From Hyphomicrobiales bacterium (lineage in GTDB: Bacteria; Pseudomonadota; Alphaproteobacteria; Rhizobiales; Hyphomicrobiaceae): a DNA stretch of 64,000 nt. The notes beneath the pieces are model-generated. The model worked only from the letters and a program-made list of their open reading frames with translations. It searched no databases and had not been told where the DNA came from. Location of the stretch: the NCBI GenBank assembly GCA_031367895.1, contig JANLQP010000104.1:6375-70374 (forward strand), given 5' to 3'. Every line of letters begins with the position of its first letter. Position 1 is the stretch's first letter. This document shows positions 15,668-19,761 of this stretch, piece after piece. The translations under genes and the position numbers were made by a program.

Positions 15668-15940
15668 AAGTAGTTGCTATTGCCAACATCGACGATACTC
15701 AAGTGGGCTGCGCTGTTGTTGGTTCTGGTCGTCATGGTTGCTTCTGGCGGATTGGCCTACACACGGTATGAATGGCGGCAATACCAGGTTACGACGGCGG
15801 CTTAGCGGGCGGCCTCGACCCAAGCATGGGATGCTGGGTCAGACTTCCGAGTGGTGGAATGGAGCGCATTGACCCCCGCGCGGCGAAATGAGATCACACG
15901 CTCGACTAGGTTGCTACGCAGAGAATAAGCGAGAAGTGCA

Positions 15941-16159
15941 ATGGACGTTGAACTCATCAGCGATCAGAAAGGGAAGCTTCAGGACCTTGTGGGATCTACG
16001 CGGTCCATTGGCCCCGACGGACCGACCTACCAGGTCCTTCGTATCATCGACGAAACACGCGCCCTTATCTCTATTCTCGAGGCCGAGCGTCAGGTCGAGT
16101 ACGACATCGCGGACATCCTGAAAGATCCTGGACCCGACGCGGCTTGGAAAAATCGCTGA
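15941..16159 (+). CDS. Small protein (72 aa), putative partner/antitoxin of the downstream VapD-like gene
   Basis: Its stop overlaps the next start (TGATG at 16157..16161). It is a paralogue of the 80-aa ORF 17404..17646: 15 identities in a 52-residue ungapped hand alignment, sharing GPxGPxYxV and L.DP. Confidence 0.6.
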   Translation: MDVELISDQKGKLQDLVGSTRSIGPDGPTYQVLRIIDETRALISILEAERQVEYDIADILKDPGPDAAWKNR

Positions 16160-16446
16160 TGTTTGGGCTGGCGTTCGATCTCGACACAGTGGCCGCAAAA
16201 CGAAATCATCCCCGCGGGTCGTCGGCGCAGGCATACACAGACATCAGGATGACGCTGGCCCCCTATGGGTTCGAACGCATTCAGGGCAGCACGTATGCAG
16301 CGAGCCATGAAGATCATGGCAAGCTCTTTCTCGCGCTGACTGCCCTGCGAAATTTGACTTGGCTCGGTACCAGCTTGCACAACGTCCGGGTGTCCCGGAT
16401 GGAACAGGGAACGGACTTCACCGAAATCATGAAGTCTCCACGTTAA
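16159..16446 (+). CDS. VapD-like (Cas2-fold endoribonuclease family) protein, divergent copy
   Basis: 95 aa starting MFGLAFDL. It keeps the AYTDI..L.P.GFERIQGS.Y core of VapD. The C-terminal motif is degenerate (SRMEQGTDFT instead of F.VE.WSDFT). About 36 identical positions in my hand alignment to the copy at 17657..17935. Confidence 0.8.
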   Translation: MFGLAFDLDTVAAKRNHPRGSSAQAYTDIRMTLAPYGFERIQGSTYAASHEDHGKLFLALTALRNLTWLGTSLHNVRVSRMEQGTDFTEIMKSPR

Positions 16447-16473
16447 CGAAAAAGACGCGCAGGATTCAAATCG

Positions 16474-17349
16474 ATGGCCTCACTCAAAGAGATGCGAAAC
16501 CGCATTGCCTCCGTTAAGGCGACGCGGAAAATTACCAAGGCCATGCAGATGGTCGCAGCCGCCAAGCTGCGTCGCGCACAGGAAGCGGCCCAGGCCGCGC
16601 GTCCCTACGCCGAGCGCATGGACCGCGTGCTCGCCAATCTGGCATCGAAAGCCAGCAAGGAGGGCGCCTCGCCGCTTCTCGTTGGCACTGGCAAGGACCA
16701 GGTGCACCTGCTCGTCGTCATGACCGCCGAGCGCGGCCTGTGCGGCGGCTTCAACTCGAACATCGCCCGTCTCGCACGCGCGGATATTCAGCGGCTGAAT
16801 CGTGACGGCAAGACGGTCAAGATCATGTGCGTCGGTCGCAAAGGTGCGGACAACCTGCGCCGGGACTTCGCCCGCCAGATCGTCGACCGCATCGACCTCA
16901 AGGCTGTGAAGCAGATGAGCTTCACCAATGCCGAGGATATCAGCCGGAAGGTGATGGCGATGTTCGAGGCGAAAGAGTTCGACATCTGCACGATCTACTT
17001 CTCGCAGTTCCAGAGCGTGATCGCGCAAAAGCCGACCGCGTTGCAGCTGATTCCAGCCAAAGTGCCCGAGGCGAAGGCCGACGCGGGCGCGAAATCGGCC
17101 GTCGAATACGAGCCCTCCGAGGAAGAGGTGCTTGGCGATCTCTTGGTCCGCAACATTTCGACACAGATCTTCCGCGGCCTCCTGGAGAACGCGGCGTCCG
17201 AGCAGGGCGCGCGGATGTCGGCCATGGACAATGCGACGCGTAACGCCGGCGACATGATCAACAAGCTGACGATCAAGTACAACCGCCAGCGTCAGGCGAA
17301 CATCACGAAGGAGTTGATCGAGATCATTTCGGGCGCCGAGGCGCTTTGA
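16474..17349 (+). CDS. atpG: F0F1 ATP synthase subunit gamma
   Basis: 291 aa. N-terminal [36 protein letters not shown] and C-terminal [15 protein letters not shown] are classic gamma-subunit ends. Confidence 0.97.
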
Positions 17350-17403
17350 CATCCGAATTGATTTCGTATTTGGTTTGTTCTCGTCAACCAGCAGGAGCGG
17401 GAC

Positions 17404-17646
17404 ATGGCTTCACAAGGTCGAGCAACGCGGGGCGGTTATCGCGAGGCACAAGCAAAGTACGGCTTTGCAGAACAGCGCGCTTTCATCGGCGATGTCCGTC
17501 GCTTCGGGCCGTTCGGACCGGCCTACGAGGTGGTTGATGTAAAGGCGAACGGTGACGTCCGCATTGTCGTGATCGAGACAGGCGAGCGCTTGGACTACGC
17601 GCAAGCTGAGTATCTCGCCGATCCTGTCGCCGAAACGGTTCCATGA
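17404..17646 (+). CDS. Small protein (80 aa), putative partner/antitoxin of the downstream VapD gene
   Basis: AGGAG RBS 6 nt upstream. Paralogue of 15941..16159 (GPFGPAYEVV vs GPDGPTYQVL). It ends 10 nt before the VapD start. Confidence 0.65.
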   Translation: MASQGRATRGGYREAQAKYGFAEQRAFIGDVRRFGPFGPAYEVVDVKANGDVRIVVIETGERLDYAQAEYLADPVAETVP

Positions 17647-17656
17647 GGTCTGTGTC

Positions 17657-17935
17657 GTGTTCGCCATAGCATTCGTCATGGTCGTCGCCGATATCAGGCA
17701 GCACTATCCCAAGGGGATATCGAGCGCCTACACGGAAATCGGGAAAACGCTCACGCCGCATGGGTTCGAGCGGGTTCAGGGGAGTGTCTACCTGACGCAT
17801 AACGCCAGCTTGGCGAACCTGTTCGATGCGATCGACGCATTGAAAGCAATGAAGTGGTTCAAGCTTTGTGCCCGCGACGTCCGCGGCTTCAAGGTCGAGA
17901 ACTGGTCGGATTTCACAGCGTCCGTTAAGCGCTGA
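17657..17935 (+). CDS. vapD: Virulence-associated protein D (VapD) family endoribonuclease-like protein
   Basis: 92 aa with a GTG start. MFAIAF...YPKG.S.AYTEI...L...GFERVQGSVY...LF.AI.ALK...WF...VRGFKVENWSDFT matches the VapD family pattern, as recalled from Helicobacter and Haemophilus VapD, along the full length. Confidence 0.9.
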   Translation: MFAIAFVMVVADIRQHYPKGISSAYTEIGKTLTPHGFERVQGSVYLTHNASLANLFDAIDALKAMKWFKLCARDVRGFKVENWSDFTASVKR

Positions 17936-17996
17936 ACGAATGCGCGGCTACCCCACCGGCGCCGCATGGGAATGACGGGAACGAGGAACGAGACAA

Positions 17997-19436
17997 ATGG
18001 CATCGAATAAAGTCGGCAAGATCCGCCAGGTGATGGGCGCCGTCGTGGACGTGCAGTTCGACGGCGGGCATCTGCCGGAGATTCTGAACGCGCTCGTGAC
18101 AATGAACCAGGGCAACCGCCTTGTACTCGAGGTGGCGCAGCATCTCGGCGAGAATGCCGTGCGCACGATCGCCATGGACAGCTCCGAAGGTCTGACGCGC
18201 GGCCAGGAAGTAACCGACATGGGCGAGCCGATCTCGATGCCGGTCGGTGAGGAGACGCTCGGCCGCATCATGAACGTCATCGGTGAGCCGGTGGACGAGG
18301 CTGGTCCGGTGAAGACTGCATCCCGGCGCGCCATCCATCAGTCGGCGCCCGTGTTCGCCGACCAGTCGACCGAAGGTCAGATCCTCGTCACCGGCATCAA
18401 GGTCGTCGACCTGCTGGCGCCCTACGCCAAGGGTGGCAAGATCGGCCTGTTCGGCGGCGCCGGCGTCGGCAAGACCGTTCTGATCATGGAACTCATCAAC
18501 AACGTCGCCAAGACGCACGGCGGATACTCGGTGTTCGCCGGCGTCGGCGAGCGTACGCGCGAGGGCAACGACCTCTATCACGAGATGATCGAGTCGAACG
18601 TCAACGTCGACCCCAAGAAGAACAACGGCTCCACCAAGGGCTCCAAGTGCGCGCTCGTGTACGGCCAGATGAACGAGCCGCCGGGTGCCCGCATGCGCGT
18701 TGCGCTCTCCGGCTTGACTGTCGCCGAGCACTTCCGTGAGCAGGGCCAGGACGTGCTGTTCTTCGTCGACAACATCTTCCGCTTCACGCAGGCAGGTTCC
18801 GAAGTGTCGGCTCTGCTCGGCCGTATTCCGTCGGCCGTCGGCTATCAGCCGACTCTCGCGACCGACATGGGCGCGTTGCAGGAGCGCATCACCTCGACGC
18901 AGAAGGGTTCGATCACGTCGGTGCAGGCCATTTACGTGCCGGCCGACGACTTGACCGACCCGGCGCCTGCCACCTCGTTCGCTCACTTGGACGCGACGAC
19001 GGTGCTGTCGCGCTCGATCGCGGAAAAAGGTATCTACCCGGCGGTCGATCCGCTCGACTCCACCTCGCGCATGCTCGACCCGCGCATCGTCGGCGACGAG
19101 CATTACGGCGTCGCACGGCAGGTCCAGTCGATACTGCAGAAGTACAAGTCGCTGCAAGACATCATCGCCATTCTCGGCATGGATGAACTCTCCGAGGACG
19201 ATAAGATGACGGTGTCGCGCGCCCGCAAGATCGAGCGCTTCATGTCGCAGCCGTTCGACGTCGCCCAGGTCTTCACCGGCTCGCCGGGTGTTCAAGTGCC
19301 GCTGAAGGATACGATCAAGGGCTTCAAGGGCATCTGCAACGGCGACTACGATCACCTGCCGGAGCCGGCGTTCTACATGGTCGGCACGATCGAGGACGCC
19401 GTCGCCAAGGCCGAGAAGCTCGCCGAGGCCGCCTGA
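17997..19436 (+). CDS. atpD: F0F1 ATP synthase subunit beta
   Basis: 479 aa. Walker [16 protein letters not shown]-like loop (MDELSEDD). Confidence 0.98.
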
Positions 19437-19469
19437 ACCGCGGCATGCGCCGCAGAAAGTGAGACCGTC

Positions 19470-19721
19470 ATGGCCGCCGACGACAAGAAGTTCGGCTCGT
19501 GCTGCGAACTGTTGCGCGATGCGATGAGCGACGAGGATTTCGATCCGCTCATCACAGTCGGCGAAGATGACGGCATCCTCTATCTCTCTGTCGGCCTGAT
19601 CGACGTCGAGGAAGAGCAGCCGGGCTCGGTCGAGTATCCGATGCTGCACTGCCCGTTCTGCGGCACCGCACTGCAGACGCAGGACGAGATCGACGCGAAG
19701 AGCGCCGGTAAGGCCAACTGA
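19470..19721 (+). CDS. Acidic 83-aa protein with a C-terminal CPFCG motif, function unknown
   Basis: Strong GC3 codon bias like the neighbouring atp genes. It lies on the same strand between atpD and atpC. Cys residues are CC near the N-terminus and CPFC near the C-terminus. Confidence 0.65.
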   Translation: MAADDKKFGSCCELLRDAMSDEDFDPLITVGEDDGILYLSVGLIDVEEEQPGSVEYPMLHCPFCGTALQTQDEIDAKSAGKAN

Positions 19722-19761
19722 GCTGAACGGCTGCGGCCGCTGACAAGAGCATGGGACCGAT

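Follow-up and report, generated by a model that had tools for sequence, protein, structure and literature searches.

What are predicted toxin-antitoxin genes doing between the subunit genes of an F1 ATP synthase operon, and is every gene that lies there of the same kind? The question is raised by a stretch of 64,000 nucleotides from a Hyphomicrobium-like member of the Hyphomicrobiales (NCBI GenBank assembly GCA_031367895.1, contig JANLQP010000104.1, positions 6,375 to 70,374 of the forward strand; hereafter the window), in which five F1 subunit genes lie on the + strand in canonical order, atpH-atpA-[806 bp]-atpG-[647 bp]-atpD-[325 bp]-atpC, with co-directional genes in all three of the gaps. 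A first-pass annotation had reported the 1-nt overlap of atpH and atpA, the lengths of the three gaps and the open reading frames (ORFs) within them. These lengths proved exact when the layout was recomputed, and the ORFs lie where they had been placed, with the start of vapD1 now refined to 16159 and an additional small ORF, orf43, recognised. We consider it probable that this is a mosaic operon, in which two mobile VapX-VapD (VapXD) modules occupy tolerant junctions alongside a resident gene, orf83. The F1 genes and the two cassettes are arranged as follows:

13494..14138, + strand: atpH (F1 delta/OSCP), given as the longest ORF, with the likely true start at the ATG at 13596
14138..15667, + strand: atpA (F1 alpha), whose start overlaps the atpH stop by 1 nt
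15941..16159, + strand: vapX1, antitoxin-family gene of the atpA-atpG cassette, 72 amino acids (aa); weak by itself on PF17375
16159..16446, + strand: vapD1, VapD-family predicted toxin, 95 aa, with Asp7 and Ser43 present; NCBIfam VapD E 1e-8
16474..17349, + strand: atpG (F1 gamma), PF00231 in L092; 591 relatives
17404..17646, + strand: vapX2, VapX/DUF5397 antitoxin-family gene of the atpG-atpD cassette, 80 aa; above the PF17375 cut-off
17657..17935, + strand: vapD2, VapD-family gene, 92 aa, GTG start, with Val at the catalytic Asp7 position
17997..19436, + strand: atpD (F1 beta), 82-91 % identical to relatives
19762..20190, + strand: atpC (F1 epsilon), the last gene; PF02823 in relatives

AtpA, AtpG and AtpD are 66-94 % identical to their relatives (84-94 % for atpA). 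The identical copy of atpA in L092 (related loci carry L numbers and related proteins P numbers) matches PF02874, PF00006 and PF00306, and the atpH orthologues of L081, L084 and L089, of 186-189 aa, match PF00213 (OSCP). The closest AtpG proteins in GTDB, taken at one genome per species, come from Hyphomicrobiaceae metagenome bins and are at most 83 % identical. L092 and L093, metagenome assemblies made independently from the species of the window, have the same layout, which is therefore no assembly accident; it also recurs in other species (L081, L084 and L089). The first-pass annotation took the wide spacing to be exceptional, a view that the wider comparison upholds in part. In a survey of 80 related genomes, with a wide junction defined as a gap of at least 250 bp, the median atpA-atpG gap was 45 bp and the median atpG-atpD gap 92 bp, and wide junctions occurred in 4 of 79 and 14 of 78 cases, respectively. 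Wide atpA-atpG and atpG-atpD junctions in Hyphomicrobiales are unusual, not unique.

In the VapXD systems of Haemophilus and Neisseria, VapD is a Cas2-fold nuclease and VapX is a small beta-barrel inhibitor. A profile built from the window VapD proteins and their relatives matches Haemophilus influenzae VapD (6ZN8_A) over its full length, residues 1-92, with an E-value of 3.4e-39, and H. pylori VapD (3UI3) with an E-value of 7e-26, so the VapD calls of the first-pass annotation are genuine. Taken singly, vapD2 also reaches the Pfam Cas2 family PF09827, at 23.9 bits against a gathering score of 23.8. The ORF of vapD1 opens at 16144/16159, and the true start is set at the ATG at 16159 by homologues of 94-95 aa that begin MF[AG][IL]AFD; homologue clusters number 23 for vapD1 (94-95 aa) and 468 for vapD2. 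The small partner upstream of each vapD, which had also been picked out at the first pass, can be assigned to the VapX antitoxin family. On PF17375 (DUF5397), for which the cut-off is 26 bits, vapX2 scores 30.8 bits and vapX1 by itself 15.3, under the cut-off, and a profile of vapX1 orthologues matches the vapX2-type profile with 99 % probability (E 3e-18). Among the vapX1 orthologues the DUF5397 signal is an unmarked match in L085 and L086, weak in L081 and L089 and faint in L084. DUF5397 can be equated with the VapX family because H. influenzae VapX itself scores 96 bits on PF17375 and VapX 6ZN8_C is the sole PDB match of the window antitoxin-family profile. Among 80 metagenomic VapD relatives taken for context, which are 54-73 % identical, 75 have a VapX-family sequence directly upstream of vapD. 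Within the window the vapX1 stop and the vapD1 start overlap by 1 nt (TGATG), and vapX2 and vapD2 are 10 nt apart.

The cassettes therefore share with the H. influenzae VapXD type II toxin-antitoxin system (PDB 6ZN8; PMC3560280; PMC503385) the same two families, the order vapX (DUF5397) then vapD, and the family-conserved Asp7 and Ser43. They differ in that the window pairs are co-directional inside an F1 operon, occur as two paralogous copies, one of which carries Val at the catalytic Asp, and lack, like the other embedded copies, the extended -10 motif that a quarter of stand-alone relatives have directly before the start. The pairwise ratio of nonsynonymous to synonymous substitution rates (dN/dS) for toxins and antitoxins is, as a rough figure, 0.05-0.30, and the predicted cassette ORFs are, judged by these values and by their homologies, real genes and not chance frames. 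VapD1 and VapD2 are 37 % identical and VapX1 and VapX2 23 %, which shows the two predicted modules to be old paralogues; the earlier claim that the occupants were independent in origin is borne out. A recent duplication of cassette 2 to give cassette 1 was considered and is ruled out by these identities and by the separate clades into which the two fall. A repeat search found no target-site duplications or inverted repeats flanking the window cassettes, the only notable repeat being a 59-nt stretch, at 75 %, that is paralogous between vapD1 and vapD2.

Some relatives depart from the simple two-gene form. The atpA-atpG antitoxin is called at 133-137 aa in L089 (3103-3516) and L084 (3733-4137), with an N-terminal extension that resembles a second, degenerate VapX-like domain (tandem VapX). 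P0228, a VapD2 homologue of 160 aa (70 % identity), is extended at its N-terminus by a stretch with a precomputed DUF5397 match, the Pfam scan having given the Cas2-like part alone, and is possibly a VapX-VapD fusion or a frameshifted gene call. On the short contig L162 (344-889) the order of the atpG-atpD pair is apparently reversed, with the VapD-like match before the VapX-like one.

One indication of mobility is the way in which the cassettes are distributed over the host tree, which was built from concatenated AtpA+AtpG+AtpD. The distribution is patchy: both cassettes are present in the window, L084, L089 and L081, the atpG-atpD cassette alone in L002, L009, L010 and L087, and neither in L001, L003 and L008, which belong to the same subclade as the window and have clean atpG-atpD spacers of 23-30 bp. 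L009 and L084 are near-identical hosts, with AtpA, AtpG and AtpD that are 98, 90 and 100 % identical, respectively, yet their atpG-atpD toxins are just 46 % identical and the contents of their atpA-atpG gaps differ. Comparison of such close relatives shows that the predicted cassettes have been gained, lost and replaced at atpG-atpD. The clean spacers of L001, L003 and L008, together with the different cassettes of L009 and L084, mean that loss and replacement are tolerated, and the suggestion that the modules are parked where deletion would be costly is not sustained.

Toxin and antitoxin trees were made by neighbour joining. The atpA-atpG cassettes form one clade (bootstrap 99 of 100), which turns up at the same junction in other species; the atpG-atpD cassettes, which are not monophyletic as a whole (15), split into two or more groups of moderate support (69 and 73). 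The atpG-atpD toxin of L084 falls with the atpA-atpG clade (bootstrap 80). The atpA-atpG toxin closest to that of the window is found in L081, the most distant host, at 76 % identity, as against 59 % for L089, a much closer host. In L084 a near-identical 95-nt copy of the 5′ end of atpG, with two mismatches (3546-3659 versus 4435-4530), lies between atpA and the atpA-atpG cassette, and has the look of a scar left when a cassette was inserted or exchanged. Codon composition also sets the cassettes apart, with a GC content at third codon positions (GC3) of 0.59-0.77 in the cassette genes of the window and 0.83-0.87 in the atp genes.

The atp operon is one address among several. Only 6 of the 80 metagenomic VapD relatives adjoin atp genes, and the rest include copies close to plasmid RepA, ParA or resolvase genes and copies that follow other operons. 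The VapD of the Neisseria gonorrhoeae cryptic plasmid is 56 % identical to VapD2 over 99 % of its length and is adjoined by a DUF5397 gene, which shows small mobilizable plasmids to be vehicles of the family; that copy is plasmid-borne and stand-alone, whereas those of the window are chromosomal and lie in an essential operon. A second case of VapXD between the subunit genes of one enzyme was noted in L172 (2344-4903), where leuC (Aconitase, 2344-3759) and leuD (Aconitase_C, 4286-4903) have a VapX-VapD pair of the same orientation between them, the successive spacings being 20 nt, an overlap and 3 nt.

The two junctions also hold other genes. In other Hyphomicrobiales the atpA-atpG gap contains small membrane proteins or a bacterial PH-domain protein, and the atpG-atpD gap OsmC-like proteins, coiled-coil ORFs or DUF6232, and it follows from this varied cargo that both junctions are tolerant across the order. 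The first-pass annotation had argued that chance insertion alone could not account for so many occupants; the occupants are better read as marking a tolerant and repeatedly reused site. OsmC/Ohr-like genes of 133-140 aa were seen at atpG-atpD in L013 (6898-7302), L016, L019, L031, L045, L061, L067 and L078, carried by Hyphomicrobium, Methylocystis, Methylobacterium and Beijerinckiaceae bins, with PF02566 checked on the L013 copy alone (E 1.5e-20); the coiled-coil ORFs and DUF6232 were seen in L018, L034 and L067. The stretch from vapD to atpD is much longer, at 260-350 bp, in L010 (4585-4865), L087 (5283-5636) and L084 (5903-6142), where it contains further small ORFs or non-coding DNA, which suggests extra layers of insertion at the same junction.

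How might such cassettes be expressed? The cassettes lie 27-61 nt from the neighbouring atp genes, apart from 273 nt after atpA. A terminator scan, in agreement with the first-pass annotation, found no terminator-like site on the + strand inside the three gaps. An extended -10 motif (TGnTAnnnT) directly precedes the vapX start in 12 of 52 stand-alone copies and in none of the 16 atp-embedded ones; its position directly at the start suggests leaderless transcripts for the stand-alone copies. Conversely, a Shine-Dalgarno sequence precedes vapX in 8 of 16 embedded versus 10 of 52 stand-alone copies (p 0.023, modestly significant). Because of the tight spacing, the lack of terminator-like sites and this difference in start signals, read-through from the atp promoter would be the most economical reading. 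No Rfam family was matched in a scan of 13000-20600 at a permissive E-value, and neither the 273-nt spacer after atpA nor any other junction spacer folds better than shuffled sequences (z +1.45 to -0.41), so nothing here points to a processing or attenuator structure. A conserved non-coding motif, GTATNTGGTTTGTTC, was seen about 20-35 nt upstream of vapX2-type starts in the window (17370-17385), L002, L009, L084 and L095, and the group of L087, L089 and L081 has a different upstream motif, GTGGTAGNGT; each of the two may be an operator or a promoter remnant.

VapXD belongs to the type II toxin-antitoxin systems; its VapD toxin has Asp7 and a serine as catalytic residues, and a D7N mutation abolishes the toxicity of a VapD homologue (PMC11980593). 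Of 121 VapD2-group sequences, 119 have Asp7, Val being found only in the window and in P0144, which is identical to it. The D7V codon change, GAC to GTC, is present in three assemblies, and P0145 equals the window VapD2 save for Asp at position 7. VapD2 D7V is, on this comparison, a single, recent change at the predicted catalytic residue, and the toxin is probably dead; Ser43 is kept. VapD1 keeps both Asp7 and Ser43 and has Ser at position 78 (F78S), where 21 of 24 and 119 of 121 relatives have Phe. Together, D7V and F78S would fit a decay of toxicity in a selfish module. The Val allele is reminiscent of VapW, a VapD without catalytic activity in which Val or Glu holds the catalytic positions; VapYD and VapWD exemplify pairs of VapD-family toxins and small cognate inhibitors (Gilep et al., 2025, PMC11980593). 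The partners in the window are, however, of the VapX family and not VapY or VapW, and VapD2 D7V is one residue away from an active-type allele, as expected of a fresh loss and not of an established VapW lineage.

The third gap tells a different story. It contains a single gene:

19470..19721, + strand: orf83, acidic Cys4 small protein (FGxCC ... CPFCG), 83 aa, between atpD and atpC

The first-pass annotation treated orf83 as an insertion like the others, and this must be abandoned. The gap at atpD-atpC is wide in 17 of 18 Hyphomicrobium-like genomes (median 390 bp) and in none of 25 others (median 78 bp), and orf83 itself is at this junction in 17 of the 18, and also in L174-L176. Homologues lie between atpD and atpC in every locus with visible context, including Filomicrobium and the most distant of the matches listed; the gene is missing in L089. 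As to whether the inserts were a family-wide feature, orf83 is nearly constant at its junction and the VapXD cassettes are patchy. The idea of addiction modules is supported for the two VapXD occupants and not for orf83. The GC3 of orf83, 0.83, and its dS are both like those of the atp genes, and pairwise dN/dS is 0.15-0.59. To judge from these properties, orf83 is an old, clade-wide and vertically inherited gene under purifying selection, unlike the cassettes.

All 123 of the close homologue clusters of orf83 are unnamed. In their alignment C61-P-F-C64-G is invariant and C11-C12 nearly so, and the composition is very acidic; the protein is probably metal-binding. There was no match in Pfam at E-values up to 1, matches in NCBIfam were all far under the cut-offs (E 0.1-0.2), and PADLOC and PHROG gave none. 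An exhaustive profile search retrieved 214 representative clusters, in which the matches listed are mostly shorter than 130 aa and some have tandem or membrane-anchored architectures. Co-expression with F1 is most likely, and a role in F1 assembly or regulation, suggested by synteny alone, may be envisaged. Small ATP synthase regulators are known in Alphaproteobacteria, namely the zeta subunit (DUF1476). Like zeta, orf83 is small and associated with F1 genes in an alphaproteobacterial clade; unlike zeta, it has a Cys4 motif, has neither a Pfam match nor a PDB fold match and is encoded inside the operon.

Taken together, these observations would be accommodated by the following scheme. The VapXD pairs would be mobile, self-stabilising modules, whether addictive or defensive, that exploit the atp junctions as tolerant and always-transcribed sites. 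Transcripts reading through from the atp promoter would supply their mRNA, translation would be led by Shine-Dalgarno sequences, and the modules would not be regulators of ATP synthase. The apparent recent loss of the catalytic aspartate from VapD2, and the F78S substitution in VapD1, fit toxin decay within such modules. The product of orf83 would be separate in kind, a vertically inherited acidic Cys4 protein fixed at atpD-atpC.

Several points weigh against this scheme. The toxicity of the VapXD pairs, its neutralisation and their transcription are all read from sequence, and the window and most of its relatives come from metagenome bins. On the NCBIfam equivalog NF041506, which has a cut-off of 100 bits, the single sequences score 35.4 bits (VapD1) and 33.0 (VapD2), each with an E-value of about 1e-8, and both are predicted VapD-family proteins outside this narrow model. 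The dS values of the cassette genes are saturated (1.4-5.3), which makes their dN/dS rough and their divergence times not comparable with those of the atp genes, and the trees are neighbour-joining trees of about 92 residues. Sliding-window nucleotide identity over atpA, atpG and atpD, in pairs with similar cassettes, gave the usual conservation profile alone, with no recombination tracts, and transfer through the atp flanks by homologous recombination is at most a conjecture. The embedded toxins keep to fixed junctions down to 47-59 % identity, under purifying selection, and conservation of this kind over deep divergence could reflect a host-beneficial, operon-linked role. The promoter and Shine-Dalgarno contrasts depend on start codons that were assigned by rule, in effect guessed, and the significance of the latter is modest. 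As for orf83, its AlphaFold2 model is a mixed alpha/beta structure of moderate confidence (predicted local distance difference test, pLDDT, 70.7) for which Foldseek found no meaningful fold match in the PDB (best E 1.6), and any physical tie to F1 would be conjectural.

Of the alternatives, the one that survives best is that the VapXD pairs are anti-phage or stress-defence genes, acting in abortive infection or persistence, for which the atp operon just supplies strong constitutive expression. VapD is a Cas2 homologue, toxins of the VapD type set off the SOS response and have cognate antitoxins that neutralise them (PMC11980593), and the rapid turnover of several lineages at one site resembles the dynamics of defence islands. 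Nonetheless, PADLOC returned generic Cas2 matches alone and no defence-system model, no other defence genes are adjacent, and the PHROG scan gave no link. We regard this account as unlikely, and it largely overlaps the mobile-module scheme, from which sequence does not separate it. A more ambitious variant, which we find slightly more doubtful, would make the F1 junctions of Hyphomicrobiaceae a dedicated landing site for VapXD, with long persistence, exchange between species and expression from the atp promoter only; the release of toxin would in that case be tied to ATP synthase expression, as an energy-state-coupled switch for dormancy or abortive infection, and orf83 would be a metal-binding F1 accessory or regulatory protein.

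Less probable again is that the cassettes are domesticated regulators, their VapD nucleases processing or tuning the polycistronic atp mRNA, or coupling growth arrest to ATP synthase expression, to the benefit of the host. The recurrence of cassettes at the same junctions over species, with the atpA-atpG type forming its own clade, would be expected if this were so, as would purifying selection on both toxin and antitoxin and the near-invariance of Asp7 and Ser43 across the family; moreover, the embedded copies lack the promoter motif of stand-alone ones, which would tie their expression to atp transcription. Against this, cassettes are missing from the closest relatives, whose spacers are a clean 23-30 bp, and near-identical hosts have cassettes that are unrelated to each other. 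Nor does the family keep to the atp operon, since it is also found in leuCD, after other operons and on plasmids. The cassette GC3 is not adapted to that of the operon, there is neither a conserved RNA structure nor an Rfam element to mark a processing site, and the VapD2 of the window has no catalytic Asp, which speaks against a nuclease role that atp expression could not do without. The RNase-based tuning of atp mRNA that had been proposed at the first pass is disfavoured by this patchiness, by the leuCD and plasmid sites and by VapD2 D7V. Finally, that the wide junctions reflect mis-assembly or chimeric binning and the small ORFs chance frames, as the metagenomic origin of the window and most relatives and the sub-threshold Pfam score of vapX1 by itself might suggest, is effectively refuted by the identical arrangement in the independent assemblies L092 and L093 and in several species, by strong profile homology to VapD and VapX of solved structure and by dN/dS well below 1.

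The junction after atpA has a tentative fourth occupant:

15674..15805, + strand: orf43, candidate small single-pass membrane protein, 43 aa, directly after atpA

The GC3 of orf43 is 0.64 and all of its library matches fall below the family cut-offs (DUF2537, 20.6 versus 23.2 bits; PRK13682.2-2); it may encode a genuine small protein or be a remnant. Small hydrophobic ORFs were also seen directly after atpA in L089 (2839-2982, 47 aa) and L002 (5666-5920, 84 aa), and those of the window, L089 and L002 share a K-[WI]-hydrophobic-stretch...Y..Y pattern, of which the 43-aa form appears shortened. At the other end of the operon a stable fold, better than that of shuffled sequence, lies directly after atpC (20181-20270, -36.5 kcal/mol, z -1.97), without a U-run, and is a possible end-of-operon element.

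How novel is the arrangement? The gene families are known or ordinary, and it is their location inside the F1 operon that is unusual. In the papers searched, no description was found of VapD, or of toxin-antitoxin genes in general, inside an ATP synthase operon, and the term 'ATP synthase' does not occur in the VapD census of PMC11980593. The atpG-atpD junction has an older history, in that Tybulewicz, Falk and Walker reportedly found in 1984 an unidentified gene between those for gamma and beta in the atp operon of Rhodopseudomonas blastica. That gene would likewise be a co-directional non-ATPase gene at atpG-atpD, a junction occupied in 14 of the 78 related genomes surveyed, whereas the occupants in the window are predicted toxin-antitoxin modules.

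Toxin-antitoxin modules are usually discussed as cargo of plasmids or islands. Their repeated presence, as VapXD, between the subunit genes of a highly conserved and highly expressed operon, where the cassettes are reused and replaced at the same junctions, represents an unusual niche for them. The known workings of VapXD or of F1 are unchanged by these findings. What the Hyphomicrobiaceae locus may offer is a natural system in which to ask how small, promoter-less selfish modules invade operons, whether read-through stabilises them and how their toxins decay, for which D7V would provide a single-step example. The small Cys4 protein of orf83, whose place between the beta and epsilon genes is fixed throughout a clade, becomes a candidate ATP synthase-associated factor.

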